NCBI GenBank assembly: GCA_000002445.1
Contig: CP000070.1
Coordinates: forward strand, 160,001 to 224,000
DNA from: Trypanosoma brucei
Lineage: Eukaryota
DNA: 64,000 nt
Direction: 5' to 3'
This document shows, piece after piece, positions 1 through 64,000 of this stretch. The notes below the pieces were generated by a model. That model saw only the letters and a program-made list of their open reading frames with translations, was not told the origin of the DNA and searched no databases. Position numbers and translations under genes: made by a program. Numbering within the stretch: the stretch's first letter is position 1; every line of letters begins with the position of its first letter.

Positions 1-3000
1 AAGCAATCCTTCCCCGGGACATCATGCGGAATATAAATGCGTGGAGCGTCGAAAATAATTTTTGAGCGTTGTTTCGACACAACACCAGCAGCCGCGGAGG
101 GCAAAGCCAGTCGCTTATCAATAACAGCGTCACTGCTCCTACTTCCCTCGGGATCCCACAGCTGCGGCATCTCCTGAACTTCTCTGGAATACTTTCTACC
201 AACGGAAGTCAGCGGGCCATGATCGACTACAGATCCACCATCACATGGTTTGTTGTGGCGGTTCTCATCACCAGCTCTCAAGAGGTGACTATCAGCTGCC
301 TTTAGTTCATTTTCCTCGTCGTCGCTAACGTCACCCAACAAAAGGGTGCGGCGAACGGGTGTGCACGCGTTCGCACTACTTGGGCTGTTATCCGCCATAT
401 TTTCCTCAAGTCTTGCTGGCGTGTTAGACTTCCCCCGTGATAAACCACATAGAAAGCCAATGGGGGGAAACGTCTCCTCATCTCCCACCAAAGCCGCTTT
501 AACATGGGCAGAAGGCGATGCAAACCGGGGTGTGCTGGCACGTTGCTGCCCGGGGGTGCGCAATGTAGCCCGAGCTGGCGTAGCACCTGGCGTTGTAAAA
601 TCGAATTGGTAGTTGACAGCAAGTTGCGGTGACTGGAAAACCGGGCTGTGGCATGTTGCGCTACTGAATGGGAGTAGCGTCACGTCAGTTTCTCGTACTG
701 GTGTAGCGGGTGGCGTCACGGCAGAGTAAACTAGGGGCCCACCAATGACGGTTTCACCTTCAACCGCCCTATTTTCCTTGTGTGGTTGCTGACGAGTGAG
801 TGTCGTTGGTAAGGCAAAAGGTTTCTCATCAAGAAAAGTGCCCCATGCCACACTAGCCTCCAGCCATTCCAACCCGACTAATGAGACACGATCGGATGCA
901 GCATACTGTACTAACCTTTGCGGTAGCAATTCCTGGTGCACCTCACAAGGCCACGTGCTACCGCGGGAGAGTAGTGCATCCATACTTTTTCGCTCATCCA
1001 CATCGCCCGTCCTAAAGCAGCAGCGAATGTCAGAAACTGCTGACGAGCCACCCACCGCCACCTCGTCCACAACCTGGGGGATTTTAGAAAGAAAAATGGT
1101 TGCAACATCCACAAGCACAACATGCGTGACAGCTTCCAGCACCAACTTCTCCGCTCGGTGACCACATAGTTCGCTAACAGCAGCACCAAGGCAGTTCAAA
1201 AGTACCCGACGAAGCGCAGTCAGCGTCTCAAACCCCTGATCGTCAATAACGCATCCTTGTTGTCCTGATTTAGAGGGCATCAGACATAAAAAGTACACAG
1301 TTACACCGATGAGTGGAGCTTTTTCATTCCGGCGGCGGCCAAGCCACGGTGATGGTGCTAAGGGCATCCCTCCTTTGGTGGTGACATCACCACGGCGCAA
1401 TAACTGCTGCCGTGCCAGTCGCTCCGCCTCTGTAGGTGTTGATCTATAAAAAAGAAAGCAACTTTTGGGTTGTAATAGGTGACGTGCCGCCAGCGAGCAC
1501 AAAATGTAGTCTTGCGTGACGCTCGGAAGAAAGCGAAACGGGTGGCGAGCGGGGGCGGTATCTGCTTGCCGTTGGTTCCTTCCGAGCAGTAGCACATCGG
1601 AAGGTTTCTGATTTCCATGCGGCACGACATAAAAAACGTGATGAAATGGTCCCGCAGGTCTAGTACCATTTGAAGGGGTGTCAACGTTACCAGGTTTATC
1701 GGATCGGGCTAGCGTAGTTGTTTCGCCTGCTGCTCGAGAAACCTTCCTGTGTGAAAATGATCCCGCATCATGCGCACGGATCAGCTTCCTGTACGCTGAT
1801 GTGAAGTAGTGAATCATCGATGTGATATTGTCCTCACGCGGTTCATTTTCCTTCACCCCAGTACATTCCTTTTCCCCTTCACCGGCACCGGCTCCTGTAC
1901 GGGACAGCACCTTGACCCACTCGTTGAGGGATCTTTTTGTCCATTCACCTTTACCGTATTTGATCAGTGCGCGGACGATATTGAGATCAACGCGTGAAAA
2001 GTCGTTCTCAACGAAACAAAAGAAGGACTTAGTGAATACAGGACGGCACTCTTCGTCATCAGAAGAGCCCTTTAGCAGTACGTATAGCTCGTTGAATTTC
2101 TGCACCGCAAGACTTGCGTCCGCTTCGTAACGTTTCCTTGCATCATCAACTGACTTTGACGACGTTGTTACGGCTTTGTCGTGTTGACGACCACCACTCT
2201 CAGCAGTTGTCGCTTGGTTATTTGTTGGGTTGTTTCTCGGTCGAGGTCGAAGAACGGCTCGATTCACCTTCCCTTGCTGAAGTTGCTGTTGTTGCCGATC
2301 AAAATCCATAAACGCTGCCATGTTCGTCAAGGGTTGAAGGCTGAACATACCAGTCGTCGGAAGTTTCTCCAAGGGAAGTGGAACCGGCTCAAATATTAAA
2401 TCTTCCGCTTCATGACCAGAAGAGGCACTCATCTGCGCTGCCACCTGACAACACTCTCGGAGCCAACCTACCGTTACAATGCGTTCTACCGGGATTCCAT
2501 ATGTCACACTCAGGTGGTCACGCAGCTGCGCAAGCAGCATGGCTTTCTGCTTTTGGTCCTCACTTGCGACCGCAGCCATACGTGTTGCCTCTTTTATGTC
2601 TTCGTCCACCAGTTCGCTGCCTACCACGACCACATCTGTGAAGGGTGTGACAACGGGTGTGCGCAGAAAACGACAGCGTACGGCCATACGTGCACAATCC
2701 ACTAACTGCGGCGGAGTACAACCTAATAGTGATATCTGCAGGAAAGGTCGACTATGTGTAAAGAATGTTTCACAAAAGTCAAATATGTCCTTGTCACCAT
2801 TGCTCCGACTTGCCTCCAGAGAGGTAGAGCTAGTCATACAGTTTTGAAGTCGCACCTCACCGGTCATACCGCTGTTGGTTGGAATGGGATGAGGGTCAGC
2901 AACGGAAGAAAATGGATTCAGCGTTGCACCACTCGTTGAAAGGTGAAGCGGGGGCGGCGCATCCAGCACTGCGTTTTCATCCCCCATTGGAAAACCCGTT

Positions 3001-3998
3001 GCACAGCACTCACTTCCAGTGTGCGAAGTATTCCATGTTCCAAACAACTTCTGCGAAGTGCTCAAATGATGGCTACCCGTTGCTTGTCTTTCGGGGGACA
3101 CTATTCTGATTGCACGCTGCGAATCATCACTAGACAAAGCACTATTGCATTCATCGCGGGCCCTCTTCCTGTACGGTTTGTTGTCGATATCCACCACTAC
3201 ATGTCCCGCGACGGATGTTGCTGCATTCCCTACGGAACCGGCAACCTGCGTATGCGGCACCACACCACCAACAACAGAGCTTGGTAGTGCACAAAGTTCG
3301 GCGATCGTCTCGAAGTCAGTACGAGATAAGCCAGCATCGCAACCGTTGGAGTTTCCACCCAAACAGGTGCTTTGCAGTGCAGCCAATGAAAGGAAACGCG
3401 TGTGCTCTACAACAGGGATATTGGTGGCCCATGCAAAACGAATTTTTTCTGGGAGAATCGGTCCGGCCGCAGCACCGTCACGCATTGCTGTTGAGGGACG
3501 ACCGTGTTTCTGCTGTAATTGTTGGAACTGCTTCAACCAATCGGGGGAAACAAAAAGCATGGAAATACACGCCGAGAGTGTTCGACTAAAGGTTCCGCCA
3601 TTACTTTCGATGATAGAAGTGAGAGCTCTTTCCTCGTCCACAGTCAACTGCGTTGCGCAGAAAACATAACCATGAAGAAGAGGCACACGACAGTCACTAA
3701 TGGGAAGGCGGCCATGTGATTCCAACCACCGCAATGACACGACAGGTATCGACTGCTGCTCCGCTACAAGGCGTTTACGAGTAAGTCCTCGCCCAGCGAC
3801 AAGAATGGTTGTCCGTTTTGTGATGCGCGTCTGCGTTTTTGCCCCAAGCGAAGAAGCGAGATTCGTTACCTGGCGAAGTGACACTGCCCCACTCATCTCC
3901 CCGTTTGCGGGTGCCGCTGTTACAGTACTAACTGCATCGTCCTCGTCGACTTCATCGGAGAATCCAGAGAAACACACATAGTGACCAGAGAGAGCCAT
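1..3998 (-). CDS. Partial CDS whose 3' end lies beyond the left window edge (at least 1332 codons). N-terminal tandem BRCT domains, then a long low-complexity Ser/Ala/Pro-rich region. Absent from the supplied ORF track because it has no in-window stop codon.
   Basis: ATG at 3998..3996 (reverse). I checked every + strand triplet starting at a position divisible by 3, from 3 to 3996, and found no TTA/CTA/TCA. So this reverse frame has no stop for 1332 codons. Translation starts MALSGHYVCFSGFSDEVDEDD...GAKTQTRITKRTTILVAGRGLTRKRLVAEQQSIPVVSLRWLESHGRLPISDCRVPLLHGYVFCATQLTVDEERALTSIIESNGGTFSR. This matches the BRCT pattern hhFSGf...KvTHLVag...giPIVs.eWL, twice. Same strand as all other genes. Confidence 0.75.
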   Translation of the reverse strand, partial: MALSGHYVCFSGFSDEVDEDDAVSTVTAAPANGEMSGAVSLRQVTNLASSLGAKTQTRITKRTTILVAGRGLTRKRLVAEQQSIPVVSLRWLESHGRLPISDCRVPLLHGYVFCATQLTVDEERALTSIIESNGGTFSRTLSACISMLFVSPDWLKQFQQLQQKHGRPSTAMRDGAAAGPILPEKIRFAWATNIPVVEHTRFLSLAALQSTCLGGNSNGCDAGLSRTDFETIAELCALPSSVVGGVVPHTQVAGSVGNAATSVAGHVVVDIDNKPYRKRARDECNSALSSDDSQRAIRIVSPERQATGSHHLSTSQKLFGTWNTSHTGSECCATGFPMGDENAVLDAPPPLHLSTSGATLNPFSSVADPHPIPTNSGMTGEVRLQNCMTSSTSLEASRSNGDKDIFDFCETFFTHSRPFLQISLLGCTPPQLVDCARMAVRCRFLRTPVVTPFTDVVVVGSELVDEDIKEATRMAAVASEDQKQKAMLLAQLRDHLSVTYGIPVERIVTVGWLRECCQVAAQMSASSGHEAEDLIFEPVPLPLEKLPTTGMFSLQPLTNMAAFMDFDRQQQQLQQGKVNRAVLRPRPRNNPTNNQATTAESGGRQHDKAVTTSSKSVDDARKRYEADASLAVQKFNELYVLLKGSSDDEECRPVFTKSFFCFVENDFSRVDLNIVRALIKYGKGEWTKRSLNEWVKVLSRTGAGAGEGEKECTGVKENEPREDNITSMIHYFTSAYRKLIRAHDAGSFSHRKVSRAAGETTTLARSDKPGNVDTPSNGTRPAGPFHHVFYVVPHGNQKPSDVLLLGRNQRQADTAPARHPFRFLPSVTQDYILCSLAARHLLQPKSCFLFYRSTPTEAERLARQQLLRRGDVTTKGGMPLAPSPWLGRRRNEKAPLIGVTVYFLCLMPSKSGQQGCVIDDQGFETLTALRRVLLNCLGAAVSELCGHRAEKLVLEAVTHVVLVDVATIFLSKIPQVVDEVAVGGSSAVSDIRCCFRTGDVDERKSMDALLSRGSTWPCEVHQELLPQRLVQYAASDRVSLVGLEWLEASVAWGTFLDEKPFALPTTLTRQQPHKENRAVEGETVIGGPLVYSAVTPPATPVRETDVTLLPFSSATCHSPVFQSPQLAVNYQFDFTTPGATPARATLRTPGQQRASTPRFASPSAHVKAALVGDEETFPPIGFLCGLSRGKSNTPARLEENMADNSPSSANACTPVRRTLLLGDVSDDEENELKAADSHLLRAGDENRHNKPCDGGSVVDHGPLTSVGRKYSREVQEMPQLWDPEGSRSSDAVIDKRLALPSAAAGVVSKQRSKIIFDAPRIYIPHDVPGKDC

Positions 3999-4529
3999 GT
4001 AAAATTGTCTATGGCCCTTCTCCGCTTTATGTTCTCCCCTGTCCTCCTTTTGATTTTGTTTTATTTTTTGGCAGGTGTCCTTTGGCCCTGAACAAGCACA
4101 CGCGCGACTTTGCGAGAAAAAAATTAAGAAAGAAGGATTGCTGAAGCGATGCGGTTCCCCCATGTGCGAATAAAGTTATGTTACTCAACGTAAAAGATGA
4201 TAGAGACGATCATATCACGCTGCAGTTGAAACTGTTCGCAGGTGGGTCATACTTAACAAATTTCATCAATAAACAAAAGCTGGGGGTTTTATTATTATTA
4301 TGGAAAATTGAAAAGAAAACGTAAACAAATCGCGTGAAAGGAGGGCCTCTCGGATAACGGAACGTAGCACGCCTGGAAGAAAGGATTAGCCTCTCCTTGT
4401 CCACATGCACGGACATTTTTCTAATAAACGTGTATGATCACCCCCCCCCCTCGTTGCTGTTGGAGCTTATTGTTGGAAGGGATGGGAGGGGGGTCTCGCT
4501 CTTCCCATCAATCTATTCATACACCTCTA

Positions 4530-7244: not shown

Positions 7245-8888
7245 TTAACCACCTTCACCTCGTTTCTGCTGTTGATAATAATCTCTGAGGGAATTCATTA
7301 GAGCGTCCATGGTTTGCTTATTAGCACCTTTGTACGACTGGCCGTAAGTTATGAATATTTCAGCCAGTGCCTGCAAGGCTTCAAGTCGCTGTCGCCGCTC
7401 CTCTTCGGGTACCTGATGATCCAGTAGAAGAGACGTTGCCACCCACCGAGCTGTGCTCTCCAATTCCTCAACGGAGGTGTACCAGGCCAAATCCACCATT
7501 GTAGCAGAATCCCTAAGAGTGTGTTGGCGGATGCGGCACAAGTGGCGCCATTTGTCAAGGCGTCGACGCATACGATGCGGCCCCGCCTCGTTTAAATACA
7601 GAGTCATTCTCTCCCTTGGTCCAGACGCTTTGCCGTACAGCACCACACGCATGTACTCATGACCCACCGCATGCAGAACCTCGCGCGCAAGACCCGTGTT
7701 AAGTAACCGTTGCAAGCGTCCCTTGAGTTCCTGAAGCGCAGGCGCGCCCTTGCTGTCCTTCTCGCTCCGTAGAGGTTGCAAGTAAACGCTAAGCAACTCA
7801 TCGCGACACCGTTCCAGCGTGCGCTGCCTGAAAATAGCAAGCTCTTCCTGTGTCCAGTCAAGTCCATCAATTACACGTTGCGAAAAGCTCCCTGTCTTAA
7901 CGTCACCCACTATGGCATACAGAGCGTCACCACCAAATAGGGCCCGAACAGCACCACGCTTCTTCTTACCTATGTCCTCTACCCCACTTCTCCCACCCAT
8001 ATCATACTTACGGCGCTTCTCCGCGTTACCAAGAACACGGTATGCTTTGGTTAAAACGTCAAACTGAGACGCTGCTGATTGGCTTGGATTCCTGTCAGGG
8101 TGAATTTCAAGAGCAAGACGATTGTAAGCCTCTTTGATTTGCTGCGGTGTTGCGTCCCGTGTAACACCTAGAATTGCATAGTAATCGTCACCTTCACTAG
8201 GGTGTGTACCTCCCTTTCGTTCATACCCTACATCTCGCTTGCCCCGGCGCTTGCGACGCGTTTCCCGCTTCATTGCCCGCTCGAACAGTTTTTCCGGTGG
8301 TGCCTGAAGTGAGAGAAGTGGATGGGAATTGCCAACAACACCAGAGGGGTACTCATATCTGCAGGAGAGTTCATTCCAGCAGCAACCTGGGCAAAACAGG
8401 TAAAATATGGGCGCCCTCAACGTGTGAACGCCGCATAGCAGCATCTGTTGCACAGCCGCGTACCATGCAATGGCCATAAAAACAGCTCCCCAGAACAACC
8501 CAACACCTGGGGCAATGACTAAAGCCGCTGGTCTCAAGCCTCGCAACCGTATCGCCTCAAGGGATACGGAAAGCGCCAGTAACGGCGAAACGAGAAAAGA
8601 AAGCGTTATATTAAGGGCAGCCCCACCCACAGCCCTCACTATATTCCTCGTTGGGCGTGTTGAAAGGATCACACGCCCCTCATCACCTTCTTCCTCACAG
8701 CGCCGCTTCAGAAATGCAACTTCCTCCTCCGTTATTAGCGTGAAAACCCTGCGATCGCCTTCTGGTCGGACAAAGGAGGAAAGCCACCATCCTTTACCAC
8801 TGGTGCGCCGTGCTTGGAGCGGGATGTGTTGCGTCACCGCGGTCAACTGCTGAAGAATGAGCCGCCTGGCTGTTAGTCCACTTGACAT
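7245..8888 (-). CDS. DnaJ (J-domain) protein with N-terminal transmembrane helices and a C-terminal DnaJ-X-like domain.
   Basis: 547-aa ORF. J-domain DYYAILGVTRDATPQQIKEAYNRLALEIHPDRNPSQSAASQFDVLTKAYRVLGNAEKRRKYD with the HPD motif. Hydrophobic segments LNITLSFLVSPLLALSVSL and LVIAPGVGLFWGAVFMAIAWYAAV. C-terminal region resembles DnaJ-X. Confidence 0.8.
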   Translation of the reverse strand: MSSGLTARRLILQQLTAVTQHIPLQARRTSGKGWWLSSFVRPEGDRRVFTLITEEEVAFLKRRCEEEGDEGRVILSTRPTRNIVRAVGGAALNITLSFLVSPLLALSVSLEAIRLRGLRPAALVIAPGVGLFWGAVFMAIAWYAAVQQMLLCGVHTLRAPIFYLFCPGCCWNELSCRYEYPSGVVGNSHPLLSLQAPPEKLFERAMKRETRRKRRGKRDVGYERKGGTHPSEGDDYYAILGVTRDATPQQIKEAYNRLALEIHPDRNPSQSAASQFDVLTKAYRVLGNAEKRRKYDMGGRSGVEDIGKKKRGAVRALFGGDALYAIVGDVKTGSFSQRVIDGLDWTQEELAIFRQRTLERCRDELLSVYLQPLRSEKDSKGAPALQELKGRLQRLLNTGLAREVLHAVGHEYMRVVLYGKASGPRERMTLYLNEAGPHRMRRRLDKWRHLCRIRQHTLRDSATMVDLAWYTSVEELESTARWVATSLLLDHQVPEEERRQRLEALQALAEIFITYGQSYKGANKQTMDALMNSLRDYYQQQKRGEGG

Positions 8889-23163: not shown

Positions 23164-24356
23164 GCGCGAAATCCCTTCACCTGATCCGCTCTAAGAGAAG
23201 AGAAACTTAAAGACATGCACAAAGTGTTGCGAGTGATCGTTGGAAGCATTGAGAAAACGGTAGTACTACAACACTCGCACTGATGCAGATCCATTGAACA
23301 CACACTAGAGGGAGAGCTCGTTGAGGATAAAGTAAAGATTTGGAGCTTTAATCTCTTTTGCACGAGGGCAACAAACTCCGTACAGAAAATAAAAAGTTCC
23401 CTCGTGGAAAAACACAAGCTACACGAAGCATAACACCACGCACGGAGGGCACAACGACCCGGGGTAGCATAAGCAAAGAAAAAAACCTTAAAAAAATTAA
23501 TAACACGATATATGTTCTGATCGTCGCTGTTGCCCTTCCAACCTAGCCTACCGCACAAAAGCGGAGGCAAAGAAGGATTTAAAAGGAGGGGGTGAATTTA
23601 AATGCTATCTTGCACATAATAAGTTGTAATGTGGGTTATACATCGCTTAGCACAACTAACTGATGCCACATAATTGATAAACTAAAAGGTGGGGAAAGAA
23701 GAAACTCCTCTCCCCTTCTATCCCATGACTCATGGTAGAGCAACCACACAACAACCTGCGCAGTGTCGCACATGGGTAAAATCTATTGGAGGAGCTGCGC
23801 GTAAACAGTCGGTATCAAAACAGGTCGCAAGTTTTCTAACAGAGACCGGCAACGGAGAAAATTACAAAAACCAACGTGCGACAAAAAAGGGGATACAGAG
23901 GAGAAACGTTGCCTCTAAATCTGAGCAACTGCACACGTTGTTGCTCACAAGTACAGGAGAAACAAAGATATGAGGAATATGCCAAGTAAGCAGTCAAGCG
24001 TGGGAATGAAGGAAGGAAGGTATCTCGTGCGACACACTAAAGGGGACGCAACCGGTTCCGCGTCAGCTACGGGGAAGTGAAAAAAAGAAACTTGAAAAAC
24101 ACACCCAATATATATGCATATATGCTCTCACTTGATTTCGCCATCCTTCACGTGCAGTTATTGACGGTTCCCTCGAAATATTGCACGGGAACTGCCATGT
24201 TCTATAGGAGGTGAAACTCGTATCAGAGACACCACTGGCAACCACCAAACGGTACACGCATGCCACAAAGCAAATGCAGAAGCAAGTATGCAGGGAAAAA
24301 ATTTAACCGTCAAACGGAAGTTCACGCATGGTCCCAACACGACAGCACGCAATTAT

Positions 24357-27300
24357 TTACCATGAACTACTACACGACTCCGTCTCATGGCTCTTTGCGG
24401 TGCGGTCATTAGTGTGCGAATCCCGCCCAGAACTTGTTTCTGACCTGGTGTCATCACTGACATCACTGGTGGCATCTGATTTAGTATCTTTGATATCCGT
24501 AGCGGTATCTGCAGTAGCTGGTTCCTGTTCAACACTGGTAACAGATTTCGCATCATCACTAACATCACTGGTGGCATCTGATTTAGTATCTTTGATATCC
24601 GTAGCGGTATCTGCAGTAGCTGGTTCCTGTTCAACACTGGTAACAGATTTCGCATCATCACTAACATCACTGGTGGCATCTGATTTAGTATCTTTGATAT
24701 CCGTAGCGGTATCTGCAGTAGCTGGTTCCTGTTCAACACTGGTAACAGATTTCGCATCATCACTAACATCACTGGTGGCATCTGATTTAGTATCTTTGAT
24801 ATCCGTAGCGGTATCTGCAGTAGCTGGTTCCTGTTCAACACTGGTAACAGATTTCGCATCATCACTAACATCACTGGTGGCATCTGATTTAGTATCTTTG
24901 ATATCCGTAGCGGTATCTGCAGTAGCTGGTTCCTGTTCAACACTGGTAACAGATTTCGCATCATCACTAACATCACTGGTGGCATCTGATTTAGTATCTT
25001 TGATATCCGTAGCGGTATCTGCAGTAGCTGGTTCCTGTTCAACACTGGTAACAGATTTCGCATCATCACTAACATCACTGGTGGCATCTGATTTAGTATC
25101 TTTGATATCCGTAGCGGTATCTGCAGTAGCTGGTTCCTGTTCAACACTGGTAACAGATTTCGCATCATCACTAACATCACTGGTGGCATCTGATTTAGTA
25201 TCTTTGATATCCGTAGCGGTATCTGCAGTAGCTGGTTCCTGTTCAACACTGGTAACAGATTTCGCATCATCACTAACATCACTGGTGGCATCTGATTTAG
25301 TATCTTTGATATCCGTAGCGGTATCTGCAGTAGCTGGTTCCTGTTCAACACTGGTAACAGATTTCGCATCATCACTAACATCACTGGTGGCATCTGATTT
25401 AGTATCTTTGATATCCGTAGCGGTATCTGCAGTAGCTGGTTCCTGTTCAACACTGGTAACAGATTTCGCATCATCACTAACATCACTGGTGGCATCTGAT
25501 TTAGTATCTTTGATATCCGTAGCGGTATCTGCAGTAGCTGGTTCCTGTTCAACACTGGTAACAGATTTCGCATCATCACTAACATCACTGGTAGTGTATG
25601 GCTTAGTCGCCCGAGATTTCGTGGTGGCGTCCGACGGTGTTGGCCCCTGCCCTACGCTTGCGGCGGACTGTGTGCCGTCGCTTACTTCAGAGGCAGCCTC
25701 TGATTTTGGTTCCAATGATTTCGTGGTATTTTCCAACAGGTCCCGTTGTTGCTCATCAGCCCTCCTCGCGGAGCCCTCAATGACAGTTCCTTCAACAGGG
25801 TTGACAACACCTTTAGTGGTGGGCTCCTGCTCATCACTGGCATTTGATAGCGCACCTTTACCTATCTTGGTAAGACTCGCTACATTCGAAACTTCACCTG
25901 CTGAAACATTACCACCCGTATGTGCCTCTTCGTTGGATCCTCCTCCCGATCGCCGGTCAACACTCAACCCTGCAGCTCCCATTCCATTCGTTTCCTTTGC
26001 TTTTAGAACGGTGTCCCTTACGGTGGAAGCCTTCTCCTTGCAAGTCTTTAAATGTGCTCCGTGGCTGATGTCAGTAACTCTGTTTAATTTATCGTTTGGA
26101 GCCACTGTGACACAGCCTTCAACGGCAGACTCGTGTTTGTGACCGGTGCCCAGTAACTCATTCTGCGGAGCACCGCTACTCTTTTGTACAATCATCCCCA
26201 TGGTTGTGTGCCGGGGCAAACCCGCGGGGCTGTCGCTGGAAAGTTGATGTTTCACCGATGCGGTGTCTGCTTCGTCAGTTCGTACAGTCGCTTGCGATGC
26301 GCTTCTAAAATCCTGATATCTCCTCAAGTTTTCCTCTCCCGTCATGTGTGGCTTCTGGTTCCCTAAAACTTTAGTCGATTGGACACTTTTCGCGGAATCA
26401 CACGATGATGGACGCACGATTCGACGCTCCTCTACCCCTTCGTCCGTTACATGCCTAAGCGTAACCCCCAATTCCCCACCCTGCATCTCCTCTCGGTTTA
26501 ACAACTTCTGTTTCGCTCCAAGGTGCGATACTAGCCAACGGTTGTACGCATCTTCTAGATGGTGTAATAATACCTCCTTGCGATTCACGTCATATTCTCC
26601 CCCCTCTCCACAATTTTCCCTTTCTATCTCCTCTACCTCATGTTCGAGAAGCAGCTGTTCTACTACTCGTTTGTGAAGCATGCGAGCTTGCTGATAGCTT
26701 CTGATCCCGTCGAAGTAGCGGTGGAAAACACTCTCAGTCATTTGTGCACCATCGGGCAAGGGACATCCCGGTACTCTGCCATCAAATAAAGAAGCATCAC
26801 GTGTCCCGCGTCCTTCTATTTCAGGTCTATTGTGGGAGAAATTTCCCCGCGTCCTCCGGTTTCGAAGTGTAGTGATGTCCCTAGCCCCAGTTCCACGAGA
26901 CGAAGTGGACCCAGAAAGACCGGGGTAAGAAACTCCTAGAGCTGCAAACGAATCAGCAGCAGTCACTCCGAACTTATTTCTGTTGCTGTTGAAACTGAGC
27001 CCACCCACATGCTGCTGCAGTGATGGGGACAATTTATTACGGGATTGGTCACACGATGTTGCTCCTGAACGAGACCGGGAAGAACTATTAAAACGCATGG
27101 ACGAATATGCAGACATTGGTGCATCACCTGTACCTGATGCATAGAAACGGTGAAATCTCTTGGGAGTCTGGACGCGCCTGCTGGGTGACCTTCTTTCAAA
27201 CGAGTATAATTTCACCAGTTTCGGCTCTCCTAAGTCAAAGATCGAGTCGTCCTGTTGCATTCGTTGTGGCATTCCCACATTTGTTCCGGGAGATACCCTC

Positions 27301-28907
27301 GTACGACGATTCCGTTGGGGCGAGACAGACATGCGTCTACCATTAACAGGACTCTGGGGGGAAGCGTTAATTGGCCAGTTTTGCGAGTAACTCCAGTGAG
27401 TGGTACTTGCAGAGTTGGGCATCCCGCTCGACCTTCGAGTTGAAGCATTAGGAGTACACATTCCATCCCTTGATTGGGAATTGCCTTGGTTCCCAGATAA
27501 CGCACGCCAATAAGTGCTGGAGGGCAAATAACCGCCACTAATGTCCGTACGTTGATGACCCTCTCCGTATACAGGGGACGTGGACGATCCGTTATCTGCT
27601 CTCATATGTGTCTCCCCTGTCGGATTTAATGAAAGTTTGTCTACTCGAGTGCCTGGGCGGCTGCAATGAGGTGTGCAGAAAGAATAACCATTTTGCCGCT
27701 GCCCCTCAATCTCTTCTTGCTCCCGGGATTGTCCACCACTCATGGGTCTCCAATGGTCAATGCCAGGTCGAGATAAATTACATGAGGAGCAACGGGACCC
27801 ATCAAAGCCACTGCATGACCTCGGCACCCGCATCGGTGAGGCGGGAGCAGCCGTAAATAGATGCTGAGCTGCAGGTTGGGAATGCGATGACACACCAAAC
27901 GACCCACACGAAAGACTGTTCGGACTACGTGATCCGCAAGGTACACTTTGAATGCAACTGCCATGCACGACCCCGGAGCCTGCGTGAGCAGCCACTGGAA
28001 TTCCACTCCCATAACTGGCTCTGCGAACACTATCAAAGTCCCTGGAGTCCCTGACACTGTTTCCCATATAGTTATTTAACTTAGTAAAAAACAGTTGTTG
28101 TTTCTGCTTCATACAGGGAAAGTCATTACCAACCACTCCTGTGGACCCCGCATTGCCACCCCCGTGAGCACATGGCTTCCCCCCTCCATCAGCATCACTG
28201 CAGTCAGCAGCGCGGCTGCCGTGGCGGTCACCATCTTTGCACCCTTCGGTAAACGATCCGTCGATTATGGAAGACGGTGGTCGAGTGACTGTTGGGTCTT
28301 GCTTGCGGGAATGGTATCCACGTATTATGCATGAATGGGAAATCGCGCTGAGTTCCTTTCCGAGTTGTTCCATGGCAAGTCGGCGCCTTAAAACGGAACA
28401 GCAATCACCAACTGCTTCGGTTGTATCTATCAGATATTTTGCACTCTCTAACCGCAGGAGGGCCTGCTGGAAGCAATTGTGCTGAATGAAGACACGCGCC
28501 TCCCCGAATTTCTGCCAGGCGATGTCTAATGCCGCATGAACCCTCTTGCGAGCCTCGTCTCCAGTACTACTTGTAGGCCTTTCACACCCGTGGAATGAAT
28601 GCGGTGGTTTTGACTCACCTCGAACGGATTTCCCCCCCCTTCCTTCGGAATCTGGTCTCACTGATCGAACCCTCGTCCTCCGTTGAAGCGGTGTGTAGTC
28701 AAGTCCCCGCGTCAGTGGCGTCGCACTCTGCGCCCGGGAAGAAGGCCTCGAAGTTTTGTGGCTCACAACACTGCTTCTTCGTGGAGCTCTACCTCGACCA
28801 GCCGCACCTGCAGGTGTTGCACAGGATACCCATTGTCTTGATCTAAAAATGAAGTCTGAATCAGACAAATGACCCTTCGCGTCTCTTCCAACGGCGATCA
28901 CCCTCAT
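24357..28907 (-). CDS. Large repetitive protein (1516 aa). Its C-terminal ~380 aa consist of ~11 perfect 34-aa acidic Ser/Thr/Asp-rich repeats. The centre is a Ser/Pro/Arg/Gly-rich low-complexity region.
   Basis: Single ORF. The 34-aa unit SDVSDDAKSVTSVEQEPATADTATDIKDTKSDAT is encoded by a 102-bp tandem array. Architecture resembles kinetoplastid tandem-repeat surface, cytoskeletal or antigen proteins. Confidence 0.75.
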   Translation of the reverse strand: MRVIAVGRDAKGHLSDSDFIFRSRQWVSCATPAGAAGRGRAPRRSSVVSHKTSRPSSRAQSATPLTRGLDYTPLQRRTRVRSVRPDSEGRGGKSVRGESKPPHSFHGCERPTSSTGDEARKRVHAALDIAWQKFGEARVFIQHNCFQQALLRLESAKYLIDTTEAVGDCCSVLRRRLAMEQLGKELSAISHSCIIRGYHSRKQDPTVTRPPSSIIDGSFTEGCKDGDRHGSRAADCSDADGGGKPCAHGGGNAGSTGVVGNDFPCMKQKQQLFFTKLNNYMGNSVRDSRDFDSVRRASYGSGIPVAAHAGSGVVHGSCIQSVPCGSRSPNSLSCGSFGVSSHSQPAAQHLFTAAPASPMRVPRSCSGFDGSRCSSCNLSRPGIDHWRPMSGGQSREQEEIEGQRQNGYSFCTPHCSRPGTRVDKLSLNPTGETHMRADNGSSTSPVYGEGHQRTDISGGYLPSSTYWRALSGNQGNSQSRDGMCTPNASTRRSSGMPNSASTTHWSYSQNWPINASPQSPVNGRRMSVSPQRNRRTRVSPGTNVGMPQRMQQDDSIFDLGEPKLVKLYSFERRSPSRRVQTPKRFHRFYASGTGDAPMSAYSSMRFNSSSRSRSGATSCDQSRNKLSPSLQQHVGGLSFNSNRNKFGVTAADSFAALGVSYPGLSGSTSSRGTGARDITTLRNRRTRGNFSHNRPEIEGRGTRDASLFDGRVPGCPLPDGAQMTESVFHRYFDGIRSYQQARMLHKRVVEQLLLEHEVEEIERENCGEGGEYDVNRKEVLLHHLEDAYNRWLVSHLGAKQKLLNREEMQGGELGVTLRHVTDEGVEERRIVRPSSCDSAKSVQSTKVLGNQKPHMTGEENLRRYQDFRSASQATVRTDEADTASVKHQLSSDSPAGLPRHTTMGMIVQKSSGAPQNELLGTGHKHESAVEGCVTVAPNDKLNRVTDISHGAHLKTCKEKASTVRDTVLKAKETNGMGAAGLSVDRRSGGGSNEEAHTGGNVSAGEVSNVASLTKIGKGALSNASDEQEPTTKGVVNPVEGTVIEGSARRADEQQRDLLENTTKSLEPKSEAASEVSDGTQSAASVGQGPTPSDATTKSRATKPYTTSDVSDDAKSVTSVEQEPATADTATDIKDTKSDATSDVSDDAKSVTSVEQEPATADTATDIKDTKSDATSDVSDDAKSVTSVEQEPATADTATDIKDTKSDATSDVSDDAKSVTSVEQEPATADTATDIKDTKSDATSDVSDDAKSVTSVEQEPATADTATDIKDTKSDATSDVSDDAKSVTSVEQEPATADTATDIKDTKSDATSDVSDDAKSVTSVEQEPATADTATDIKDTKSDATSDVSDDAKSVTSVEQEPATADTATDIKDTKSDATSDVSDDAKSVTSVEQEPATADTATDIKDTKSDATSDVSDDAKSVTSVEQEPATADTATDIKDTKSDATSDVSDDAKSVTSVEQEPATADTATDIKDTKSDATSDVSDDTRSETSSGRDSHTNDRTAKSHETESCSSSW
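24455..25595 (-). repeat. Tandem array of ~11 near-identical 102-bp units (in-frame coding repeats).
   Basis: Unit ...catcactggtggcatctgatttagtatctttgatatccgtagcggtatctgcagtagctggttcctgttcaacactggtaacagatttcgcatcatcactaa... recurs head-to-tail with no visible mismatches across ~1.14 kb. Antisense frames are also open, which explains + ORF 24328..26142 and the alternate-frame ORF 24353..25588. Confidence 0.9.
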
Positions 28908-62300: not shown

Positions 62301-64000
62301 CGCTGAGTACAGTGTCGAAATATTCCCACGGACCCTCTGGATCGTCTCCACGCAACGTACCGGTTACAAAGTCCATAACAGCCAGCGACTTTCCCGTTCC
62401 AGTCACACCGTTCAGTAAAACGTGCCGTGAGTTTGCAACAAGAACTCCAAAGAGAGTTATGACGCTGACTGTCTCCGCGGTGGGTACAATGAGATCGAAG
62501 TACGGCAACTCCGGGCTGAAACAGAAAGTGGGCACCAGATGACGCCACGTGACAAACCTCATCGATGCTTTGTGCACAACGTAGTCGTAAACGCTGTTAC
62601 CATCATCAGCCGCGATCTTTCCTGGAAGCAACTCCTCAAAGTGCTTCTTGACAAAAGCACTGAAGCGTTCACGAGAGTCATCCCGAAGGTTACCCCCCAC
62701 TGACCAAACAAACGACATTAAAAAGTACATGTCAAGCAAGGTTTCATCATCCGCAGATACTTGCTCATACGCGATCTCAGGGGCCTTAAATTCCTCTGGC
62801 TCACTCGGCACCAGCTTGACGCCCGAGTATGTCGTCTCAGGTAAGAGATACACGTCATCGTTTTGCGGTTTCGCTTCCTTCGTACGAAGCAGTGGTGGCA
62901 GTAGGTCCTCTTCATCAATAGTTTTCATGAACGCAGCAAGCAGTTCGATGCACGATACTGCTAACTGGGCATCAACAGACCCAATCCACTCCCGACACTC
63001 TTTACGAATGAAGTCAAGGGACATGGGGAGGAAGCGCTCCAGCAGCTCACTTACGCGGTCCGCTCGAAATCTAGGAAACATGGAAGCTTTTTTGGTCACA
63101 AGACTCTTTGCTAGGGGAATCCACCCACGTCCACCGTCCACATAAAACGGTTCCGTGAACACCATACCGCAGCGGGACACAGTTGCGGGTGACGCAACTG
63201 CCAGATCCTGAACTTCAAACATAAAAGTTGCCGTGCTTGGAAGTTTGATGCGCTCACCGTTAAAAAGACACAGCAACTTGTTGTCATCCAACACTGTGTT
63301 CATATTTTCAATCCAAATAGCATCGACAGGTCCGTCGAAAACAATCCACTGACGATCAGGAAGTTCCTGCGCAACTCTTGTAATGGTCCTTGCAATGTTA
63401 CTAATAATACCGTCCGTCCATTCGCGTGTGATTTCATTCACCTGGCCGTAAAGCTCACCCATTGTAACAGACTTTGGATTTAAAAGGTGAATGTGAATGG
63501 TGTTAAAAAGCGGAATGTTGCCCTCTGGATCGTGCCCGTCTGCTTTAATTTGTGTCAGAGCCCCTTGAACAACGTGCATGATAGTCGACTTCCCGCTAAA
63601 AGTTTGACCAACAAGCATTACACCATGACGTACAACGAGTGTGTCGTAAAGTTGCAATGTTTTTGTTATCAACCCTTCGACCACCTGCAACCCTTTTTTC
63701 TCCATATCTTCCCGCACGTAGCGAACTAAGAGGTCACTCTGGGTCTCCTCGATCTTTACAGTGGGAAAGAGATCCTTAATAAGAGCCATGAAAAGTATGG
63801 TGTCGTCACGGAGAAACTTGGGAACATTGGCGTCCCGCATTGCTCTAATCAAAAGCATATCTTCATCATCGTTCGGATGTTGCCGCTTAAGACCTCCAGC
63901 AAGAACGAGAATAGACTTTACCGCACGCATACCAAAGTCGTAGTGATCCTGCTTTGACAACTGCTCGGAGCTTAACTTGTACAACTGCACCATCTTGCGC
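56317..64000 (-). CDS. Dynein heavy chain, probably axonemal. C-terminal ~2560 aa only; the N-terminal part continues beyond the right window edge.
   Basis: The reading frame stays open upstream of the reported Met at 63993 (…R-K-M-V-Q…) to the window end. AAA-module motifs GVTGTGKSLAV and LLVGMGGTGRQSLCKLAAF, coiled-coil stalk, and a conserved C-terminal domain. Stop at 56317. Confidence 0.9.
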   Translation of the reverse strand, partial: RKMVQLYKLSSEQLSKQDHYDFGMRAVKSILVLAGGLKRQHPNDDEDMLLIRAMRDANVPKFLRDDTILFMALIKDLFPTVKIEETQSDLLVRYVREDMEKKGLQVVEGLITKTLQLYDTLVVRHGVMLVGQTFSGKSTIMHVVQGALTQIKADGHDPEGNIPLFNTIHIHLLNPKSVTMGELYGQVNEITREWTDGIISNIARTITRVAQELPDRQWIVFDGPVDAIWIENMNTVLDDNKLLCLFNGERIKLPSTATFMFEVQDLAVASPATVSRCGMVFTEPFYVDGGRGWIPLAKSLVTKKASMFPRFRADRVSELLERFLPMSLDFIRKECREWIGSVDAQLAVSCIELLAAFMKTIDEEDLLPPLLRTKEAKPQNDDVYLLPETTYSGVKLVPSEPEEFKAPEIAYEQVSADDETLLDMYFLMSFVWSVGGNLRDDSRERFSAFVKKHFEELLPGKIAADDGNSVYDYVVHKASMRFVTWRHLVPTFCFSPELPYFDLIVPTAETVSVITLFGVLVANSRHVLLNGVTGTGKSLAVMDFVTGTLRGDDPEGPWEYFDTVLSAQSRARDIEDRLDGKLYKLRSNAIGPKPGKRAVFIVDDLNMPALERYGASPPLELLRQLITQGGFYDKRKSPATFKEVHDVVFLTACGVPGGGRNEMTKRLTSRFHLLCQPSFSDHSIRRIFGCILHGFLSAWEQPDVNALSSVLVEAIKECYYLISTEKLPTPKRSHYTFNLRDFSKVVQGIMQVSPTSAPTREILLNVFVHEVSRVFHDRMIDDGDRRWWWKTLSGVSQRVLKMNWDPRLENVIFGDYMRRDRSQYAEIQTGEGLIEVLREYQNGYNIESNGTCELVFFKDAIHHISRICRIFRQPRGHALLVGMGGTGRQSLCKLAAFMCNLAVHEVTITRSFNMAEFRERLKGILMESGCKDNPSVFFLTDNQIVQEEMLEDVNNLLNTGEVPGLMQNEDIDQIVEAVRPLASAAGKKEARNAIFSHFVTLCRNNVHVVLALSPVGEPFRRRLRMFPSLVNCCTIDWFDQWPADALHSVAQHIFSELPLDEEMKNGLIKLCVSIHIDVQNRSEEFFEELHRRNYTTPSSYLELLNCYHQLLSEQEEQTIAQMKRYQAGLDKLQSTQCTVDEMKEQLVQMQPKLLQAAQDTEEIMTKVKLEQESAQVVRTECSKEEEAAMAIRREADGIRAECQAELDKALPILRAAENALAELRPDDIREVKSFQKPAARVVLVLEAVLILLGERDLSWDRAKLVMGRMDFIKDLQNYKKDELTERTIRSIQKYVNNPEFQPQEVAKSSKACKSLSMWVLAINNYYEVVKVVAPKRERLAEAEAKLSVATATLREAQDRLKSIEDKINGLKRDMQENIEKKNKLEADIALTKARLNRSEQLMSGLSREQDRWHSSITFLQDEKLGLPGKVALAAGCIAYLGPFTGPYRKRMLTAWWENCKEFGVPIGNSVFDLTTLVSPAKVSSWSAAGLPQDPVSTENGVIVTKSKRWCLCIDPQGQACAWIRAMERENNLRTIRLSDPSYMRTLENAIRVGLPVLIENVEETVDAALDPVLLRQTYRSQGRLLLKLGDVEIDYDPGFRMYMTSKLPNPHYLPELQIKVTVINFTVTQGGLENQLLTDVVRYECAELEAKASNTQKDISDGKTQLKAIEDRILHLLTSSTGNILDNEPLVRTLSEAKDTSEAVTEALNLAEQTQKDIEVACNRYRPVATRGAVIYTVLSHLARVDHMYQISLDFFKQLFVKSMHRTEKVSDVDERVAILLPAVTLDSYRTVCRGLFERDKPLFVALIFSEIYRQEGIISDAEWEFLLKGSEGRSLVDIDNDSWPVWMTEAAWNELTALSMALPETFGDIKDTIYDNEDDWSTWFESDTAYEWFPSTTQGLTLFQKVLVLKACREDLTSHGLSIVCSHYLGKVFTESPAFDLEACFADSSPTAPIIFVLTAGIDPTVLFTEFAERKGFAEKKLVLSLGQDQGPKAEEMIRRGSKDGWWVYLQNCHVYESWMSTLERCVEKLHISTTLHSDFRLWLTTMPTRSFPVLLLQSGVKVVKEPPKGLKANIRDSFCNEVTPALWDGRPENPTTWRRLLCSLAYFHAVIQERRKFGPLGWNIPYEWNQSDFSASLHTLQVYVPTGVSESVPWSALRYMVGTINYGGRVTDFLDSRALVNILDAFFNENVLQPGQFNITSDGVYCIPEDVESLDAVKEYLADLPAFESPELFGMHSNADIACNRTTARNQLAVMLSVQPRTKGTAGRSPEDKVLEMVSEFQTRLPEAIDKTKAHPDTYQLTEGGVMISLGTVVSQEIDVFNSIIRKLEATLLELKRGIKGEVVMSARLESMFDACLLGQVPQIWHENSYLSRKPLASWFQDTLLRVEFFRDWNDNGMPMSFWISGFFFPQGFLTGVLQAHSRENMIPIDDIRFRTNVTRYEVVEDIVNTPKAGVLIHGLFLEGARFTFEGMSLCESNPRELYTSMPLINLEPQRLKDQDKSKPVYECPVYKTSARAGALSTTGLSTNYVISLDLSPGSSPPEHWIRRGVALLCMLDD

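Follow-up and report, generated by a model that had tools for sequence, protein, structure and literature searches.

Which gene occupies the low-coordinate end of a 64,000-nucleotide (nt) stretch of Trypanosoma brucei DNA (contig CP000070.1, positions 160,001 to 224,000; below, the window), and to which protein family does its product belong? A preliminary description of this DNA had noted a minus-strand frame that starts at the ATG at position 3998 and stays open to position 1, with two BRCT repeats in its first ~190 amino acids (aa). It had proposed to search these with hidden Markov models (HMMs) and to extend the contig leftward to find the stop, and it had left the specific identity of the product unknown. 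Our analysis improves on the last point: the gene most probably encodes a kinetoplastid protein of the TopBP1/Dpb11/Rad4(Cut5) family of multi-BRCT scaffolds, one that has diverged very strongly. We file it there because three independent collinear modules, N-terminal, middle and C-terminal, each prefer TopBP1/Rad4 over other BRCT families.

To establish the extent of the gene, we translated the reverse complement of positions 1–3998. The frame from ATG 3998 contains 1332 sense codons and no stop up to the window edge, as described; by our own arithmetic the chance of such a run is about 1e-28 (GC ~51%). It is indeed missing from the track of open reading frames (ORFs), since the ORF lister leaves out any ORF cut by an end of the window. 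The protein read from ATG 3998 shares 99% identity with a T. brucei gambiense protein of 1791 aa annotated “hypothetical protein, conserved”, and the minus strand of the window aligns with the gambiense locus at 99.3% identity. In that locus the ORF extends 1216 nt past window position 1, i.e. for 405 codons and a stop, which gives a total of 1737 aa and places the stop sought by the leftward extension. Positions 1–3998 of the minus strand are thus the 5′ 77% of a single-exon gene of ~1737 aa counted from ATG 3998, and the orthologs together with the gambiense stop bear out that this is a long, genuine protein-coding gene. The part within the window is organised as follows, with residue numbers counted from ATG 3998:

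1–3998, minus strand: coding part in the window, codons 1–1332 of ~1737 and the first 2 bases of codon 1333
3699–3998, minus strand: BRCT1 (aa 1–100), whose beta1-alpha1 loop holds a variable, acidic insertion of ~27 residues (aa 14–40)
3354–3689, minus strand: BRCT2 (aa 104–215), with a ~30-aa insertion ahead of alpha2
3246–3323, minus strand: conserved motif after BRCT2 (aa 226–251), R-x-DF-x-TIA-x-x-CAL...P-x-TQ, with positions invariant across Trypanosoma
2421–2741, minus strand: BRCT3, a predicted single BRCT (aa ~420–526), with beta-alpha-beta-beta-alpha-beta-alpha order in the AlphaFold model and a predicted local distance difference test score (pLDDT) of 60–82
2073–2393, minus strand: conserved inter-domain elements, F-x-P-x-P-L-x4-L-P (aa 536–549) and, before BRCT4, a long helix Y-x-x-E-L-x-x-A-x-R-R...L-L (aa ~614–642)
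1464–2036, minus strand: predicted BRCT4 (aa ~655–845), interrupted by ~90 inserted residues (aa ~700–785) of poor conservation
819–1310, minus strand: predicted BRCT5 (aa ~897–1060), beta3 and alpha2 being separated by a helical insertion
354–725, minus strand: disordered region (aa 1092–1215) with 12 of the protein’s 20 S/T-P sites, pLDDT <40
3–47, minus strand: conserved L-R-x-Y-x-x-H-D-x-P (aa ~1318–1332), near the window edge, from ortholog alignments

The two N-terminal BRCT repeats were confirmed, and the motifs quoted for them (FSGF, KRTTILVAG, IPVVSLRWL and GYVFCATQLTVDEERALTSIIESNGG) were all found in the translation. The HMM check succeeded for BRCT1, where both Pfam models passed their cutoffs over aa 41–93: BRCT (PF00533) with 42.7 bits in two stretches (cutoff 21.3) and PTCB-BRCT (PF12738) with 36.7 bits (cutoff 22). 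It fell short for BRCT2 in T. brucei itself, where BRCT_2 (aa 106–164) scored 22.3 bits, under its cutoff of 27.3. Of five orthologs scanned with the same model, three passed (27.6–36.5 bits), while T. cruzi and T. rangeli were narrowly under. The tandem is therefore present, and it spans ~aa 1–215 rather than 190 aa because each repeat bears a kinetoplastid-specific insertion.

In members of the TopBP1 family, BRCT1 and BRCT2 each have a phosphate pocket of their own, and this is what we found. The pocket residues are S11/G12 and T73-x-K75 in BRCT1, and T116 and K185 in BRCT2. S/T11 and T73-x-K75 are invariant across all kinetoplastid orthologs and aligned with those of protist TopBP1-like proteins; T116 and K185 are kept in most kinetoplastid orthologs, the Lys being lost in two lineages. 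A likeness to Rad4 is seen in the alignment, where K75 corresponds to Rad4 K56 and T116 to Rad4 T110. The alpha1 Arg of the pocket triad is shifted by one position and its conservation is not clear. BRCT0 is absent ahead of BRCT1, as all orthologs begin 5–8 residues before beta1, in the manner of Rad4/Dpb11. BRCT0 belongs to metazoan TopBP1 members only and is not required for the family. In the conserved motif after BRCT2, DFDTI is kept in the deeper-branching orthologs and the Leishmaniinae rows are gapped; the alignment with protist TopBP1-like proteins showed no counterpart of this motif.

Next, we searched for homologs. An exhaustive HMM search with aa 1–1160 against 1.84 billion representatives gave 16 strong matches, and all 11 that were checked by name or contig were kinetoplastid. 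The checked orthologs, 2200–3350 aa in size, include proteins of T. congolense, Leishmania martiniquensis and Leptomonas species, and the named ones are annotated “hypothetical / BRCT domain-containing”. This search with aa 1–1160 revealed no paralogue, and a second word-indexed homolog search, run with the alignment, added nothing to the eight Trypanosoma proteins of the first. The remaining matches of the exhaustive search cover the N-terminal pair only and include ~1000-aa proteins of Naegleria, a colponemid and others, which are the closest non-kinetoplastid relatives in that search (e.g. Naegleria gruberi XP_002682648.1). A profile of eight such protist proteins matched TopBP1 BRCT0-2 (4e-37), BRCT7/8 (7e-24) and BRCT3-5 (9e-23) as well as Dpb11 (8e-14) in the PDB. 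These proteins are therefore unambiguous TopBP1-family members and a firm comparison set.

Comparison with this set by hhalign linked both ends of the trypanosome protein to the family. The profile of the trypanosome family matched it over the whole N-terminal tandem (99.9%, E 4e-31), and a kinetoplastid-wide profile matched it collinearly at the N-terminus (99.4%) and in the C-terminal pair (97.5%, E 6e-12). This C-terminal pair, BRCT6-7, is similar to TopBP1 BRCT7/8 and begins ~60 residues past the window edge. Searched directly against the PDB, the kinetoplastid profile found TopBP1 BRCT0-1-2 with an E-value of 1.3e-7, human TopBP1 chains with 6e-4 and, for the C-terminal pair, TopBP1 BRCT7/8 with 3.4e-5. 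TopBP1 alone was significant; the next matches were ECT2 (0.06, N-terminal) and SLF1 (0.09, C-terminal), and no chain of BRCA1, MDC1, PTIP, Rtt107 or Brc1 appeared at E <= 1.

What lies between the two ends? The >1100 aa that follow the N-terminal repeats had been described as low-complexity, which our analysis refutes: only 52 of the 1142 residues from aa 191 to 1332 (4.6%) are SEG-like low-complexity, and the composition entropy of this part is 4.11 bits. Strongly conserved blocks are found across Trypanosoma at aa 410–520, 630–700, 790–850, 880–1060 and 1095–1150, and blocks in which W, G, P and C residues stay invariant continue into the Leishmaniinae orthologs. Poor conservation and pLDDT <50 characterise aa 255–415, 560–615, 700–785 and 1160–1315. 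An AlphaFold model of aa 400–1160, with an overall pLDDT of 51.7, showed BRCT order at aa 420–526 and 900–1052, where pLDDT rises to 88. Nearly all of its top 50 Foldseek matches were BRCT structures, with TopBP1 first and none at E <= 0.001. The models thus predict at least three BRCT folds in the window beyond the first pair, namely the single domain at aa ~420–526 and a tandem at aa ~655–1060. The single domain gave a weak collinear hhalign match to the third BRCT of the protist TopBP1-like proteins (60%, E 9e-5). The tandem is predicted to be of the TopBP1 BRCT4/5 type, with the inter-domain packing characteristic of the family. The conserved elements between BRCT3 and BRCT4 are kept from Trypanosoma to Leishmaniinae, the helix being seen in the AlphaFold model; they may correspond in position, and in position only, to the GINS-binding region of TopBP1.

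Of the architecture given in the preliminary description, the tandem BRCT head thus stands, and the tail instead carries further BRCTs, conserved motifs and, outside the window, another BRCT pair. The order BRCT1-2, linker, BRCT3, linker with motifs, BRCT4-5, disordered region rich in S/T-P and aromatic residues, BRCT6-7 is collinear with BRCT1/2, BRCT3, BRCT4/5, the region of the ATR-activating domain (AAD) and BRCT7/8 of TopBP1.

The disordered region contains three motifs, TPPxTPxxRR (aa 1095–1103), Y-x-F-(D/N)-F-x-(T/S)-P-G-x-T-P (aa 1130–1141; window 576–611) and L-x-T-P-R-R (aa 1146–1151), all of which are kept in 17 of 17 orthologs from Trypanosoma to Leishmaniinae. No similarity of aa 1092–1215 to the profile of protist TopBP1-like proteins was detected. 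By its place between the BRCT modules, the region would occupy the position of the AAD of TopBP1. The AAD was described as poorly conserved in the putative trypanosomatid TopBP1 homolog (PMC8377203). A speculative reading, which we consider rather unlikely, is that aa 1092–1215 serve as a regulatory device peculiar to this lineage, namely a non-canonical ATR-activating motif, or else built-in sites of a cyclin-dependent kinase (CDK; e.g. CRK2-CYC13) whose phosphorylated forms dock in the protein’s own BRCT pockets in cis or in trans. If the CDK-site reading were true, one giant scaffold would merge functions that are split elsewhere between TopBP1 and its phospho-partners.

Several observations weigh against membership in the TopBP1 family. 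With single sequences the similarity is hardly visible: phmmer of the 1332-aa protein gave no match in the PDB, the N-terminal 260 aa reached Rad4/TopBP1 at non-significant E-values of 0.16–0.9, and Pfam detected the N-terminal pair alone in the T. brucei protein and five orthologs. Neither the AAD nor the GINS-binding (GINI) motif is recognisable by sequence, and in alignments neither BRCT5 nor the C-terminal pair shows an evident canonical alpha2 Lys. The middle tandem relies on AlphaFold models of moderate confidence (17 sequences; mean pLDDT 52 and 62), which a TopBP1 arrangement learned by AlphaFold may have biased; its Foldseek E-values are not significant and profile-profile comparison there gave no decision. 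An hhalign comparison among the conserved blocks bears on the question neither way: it missed even the match between the Pfam-supported BRCT1 and BRCT2 and so had no power, and its negatives carry no weight. The Leishmaniinae orthologs, with 3000–3350 aa, have roughly double the size of TopBP1 proteins described so far and are nearly twice as long as the Trypanosoma proteins, with the extra ~1400 residues placed between conserved BRCT modules. Finally, the protein is a TopBP1 candidate that may be neither the best nor the only one in the T. brucei proteome.

These points leave some room, though not much, for a kinetoplastid-specific multi-BRCT scaffold that is not a TopBP1 ortholog, such as a repair scaffold of the PTIP/Rtt107/Brc1 kind or a factor acting in chromatin or at kinetochores. 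Pfam PTCB-BRCT is common to PTIP, Brc1, related proteins and TopBP1, the protist proteins used for comparison are also hit by the RTT107_BRCT_5 model, and kinetoplastids have re-used BRCT domains in new contexts, e.g. in KKT4; the undetectable AAD and GINI motif and the unusual size of up to 3350 aa fit such an origin as well. Against it, TopBP1 alone is significant in the PDB profile search at both ends, and three modules match in TopBP1 order. A ~190-aa tandem-BRCT head followed by >1100 aa that are low in complexity and essentially without structure is very improbable. Pfam is silent beyond aa ~165 and the long stretches of poor conservation and low pLDDT listed above agree with this picture, but the low compositional complexity is confined to 4.6% of the residues, the blocks of invariant residues reach out to Leishmaniinae and BRCT folds are predicted at aa 420–526, 655–845 and 897–1060. 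The least probable alternative, to which we give next to no weight, is a non-functional or chance open frame, either a pseudogene remnant or an annotation artefact. The sole point for it is that the frame leaves the window with its stop unseen there, whereas 1332 codons are stop-free, full-length orthologs with conserved domain blocks exist in at least 16 kinetoplastid lineages, and the stop is intact in the near-identical gambiense locus. We thus retain the TopBP1/Dpb11/Rad4 family as the most probable placement.

Other BRCT proteins were considered as relatives and rejected. ECT2 and SLF1 resemble the trypanosome protein in so far as the N-terminal BRCTs of the former and the BRCT pair of the latter are the next-best PDB matches to its N- and C-terminal modules. 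They differ from it in their RhoGEF (DH-PH) and ankyrin domains, respectively: Pfam found no DH or PH in the window protein and the full-length orthologs, and no ankyrin in the window protein and orthologs. PTIP/Rtt107/Brc1 were set aside as neither an Rtt107-type tetra-BRCT nor a gamma-H2A-binding C-terminal pair was the best match. BRCA1/BARD1 were likewise dismissed; no BRCA1 chain was among the PDB profile matches at the threshold given above.

How does the protein compare with known family members? It shares with TopBP1 the phospho-binding BRCT1/2, the single BRCT3, the predicted packing of the BRCT4/5 tandem, a disordered region and a C-terminal pair of the BRCT7/8 type. It differs from TopBP1 in lacking BRCT0, a detectable separate BRCT6 and a recognisable AAD/GINI motif, in its kinetoplastid-specific insertions in BRCT1, BRCT2, BRCT4 and BRCT5, and in an identity of merely ~12–20% over aligned domains. 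Like S. pombe Rad4/Cut5 and S. cerevisiae Dpb11, it starts straight at BRCT1. The yeast proteins, however, are 650–760 aa long compared to ~1737 aa here, and have four BRCTs without a BRCT3-type single domain and without a BRCT7/8-type pair. TopBP1 BRCT4/5 is the equivalent of Rad4/Dpb11 BRCT3/4, and the BRCT7/8-type pair occurs in animal, plant and protist members and is absent in yeasts. The protist TopBP1-like proteins align collinearly with the trypanosome protein at both ends but lack its kinetoplastid insertions and long linkers; their own similarity to TopBP1 is obvious, whereas that of the trypanosome protein needs profiles.

The gene is already part of the TREU927 reference as XP_845696.1 / Q57VR8, annotated “hypothetical protein, conserved”. 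This correspondence follows from the DnaJ ORF at 7245–8888, which exactly matches TREU927 XP_845698.1 and places the window on chromosome 7 of that strain. We infer the locus tag of XP_845696.1 to be Tb927.7.720, because three window ORFs anchor the numbering (the RING ORF is Tb927.7.770, the dynein light chain.820 and the TROVE/WD40 giant.830), an HSP70 gene lies directly downstream of the target in the gambiense locus, and Tb927.7.710, which we take to be HSP70.4, is named in Hsp70 papers. The gene order, DnaJ, leucine-rich repeat (LRR) gene, BRCT gene and HSP70, was read from synteny with the gambiense locus. Assignment of the DnaJ gene to Tb927.7.990 was rejected, as.950–.970 are mucolipin, a kinase and NMD3. 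No mention of Tb927.7.720 was found in the papers searched.

Reference gene models place the start codon elsewhere. Those of TREU927 and gambiense begin at an upstream in-frame ATG (window 4163–4161), with 55 and 54 extra codons respectively, whereas the T. equiperdum model (1737 aa) and every ortholog from outside T. brucei have the Met of ATG 3998 as their first residue. The 5′ flank reads as follows:

4108–4163, minus strand: upstream ATG at 4163–4161, then a polypyrimidine tract at ~4136–4113 and the first AG at 4109–4108

Since the other orthologs start at ATG 3998 and the polypyrimidine tract and AG sit between both ATGs, ATG 3998 is likely the true start. The AG at 4109–4108 is likely a trans-splice acceptor that would exclude the upstream ATG from the mRNA, and the 55 (54)-residue extension of the reference models is probably an annotation artefact. 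This would provide a start-codon correction for the reference gene model. Further upstream, a G10 run (gaggggggggggtga) lies at 4440–4470 on the minus strand between the stop of the LRR gene (~4530) and the BRCT gene, with pyrimidine-rich tracts on either side.

Elsewhere in the window, ORFs of at least 250 aa are all on the minus strand, with the exception of one that runs antisense to a tandem-repeat array, so that the window appears to lie within a single polycistron. The other loci of note are:

24451–25592: 102-bp (34-aa) tandem repeat, 11.2 copies with 99% identity, inside a 1516-aa ORF at 24357–28907, minus strand (Tb927.7.810 by count)
31360–39780, minus strand: Tb927.7.830, a TEP1-like “telomerase-associated protein” of 2806 aa that combines TROVE at its N-terminus (200 bits) with DUF4062 and numerous WD40 repeats
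56317–63993, minus strand: dynein heavy chain with AAA modules D1–D6, stalk and C-terminal domain

The 102-bp repeat accounts for the overlap of long ORFs at 24328–26142 (plus strand), 24353–25588 (minus) and 24357–28907 (minus). The 1516-aa repeat-bearing protein had no Pfam match. The dynein gene evidently starts beyond the right edge of the window, since its listed ORF begins mid-protein, with residue 1 at position 192 of the D1 P-loop model; it is truncated there in the same way as the BRCT gene is at the left edge.

What would such a protein do? In other eukaryotes, BRCT1-2 of the family binds the tail of Rad9 in the 9-1-1 clamp and CDK-phosphorylated Sld3/Treslin, and BRCT4/5 binds Sld2/RecQ4 or mediator proteins; the outcome is assembly of the CMG helicase and ATR checkpoint signalling. 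By analogy, each phosphate-binding BRCT pocket of the trypanosome protein would dock a phosphorylated partner, BRCT1 via S11 and T73-x-K75 and BRCT2 via T116 and K185, and the scaffold would bridge factors at origins, stalled forks or breaks. Its partners and its replication and checkpoint roles are transferred here from the family, and a function in replication or DNA-damage signalling, as first suggested for a BRCT protein of this size, is a sensible expectation. Trypanosomatids have ATR and the 9-1-1 clamp, and we know of no recognisable Sld2 or Sld3/Treslin in them.

Reviews state that Genois et al. 2014 listed a putative TopBP1 homolog of trypanosomatids and that no study of it followed (PMC8377203, PMC7783291). 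ATRIP and ETAA1 were not found in trypanosomatids (PMC8377203), and a Leishmania ATR paper from 2025 states that there are no reports of TOPBP1 (PMC12677790). None of the papers searched pairs TopBP1 with a trypanosomatid gene ID, and the Genois candidate may or may not be Tb927.7.720.

What our analysis adds is thus a revised architecture, a family placement and a likely start codon for what is otherwise an ordinary conserved gene at the edge of the window. The identification supplies K75 and K185 as pocket residues suited to mutation, and Y1130/F1132/F1134 as a possible activating motif. Assignment to the TopBP1 family would make two questions testable in these parasites, namely the route of ATR activation and the way in which CDK sets off the firing of origins.

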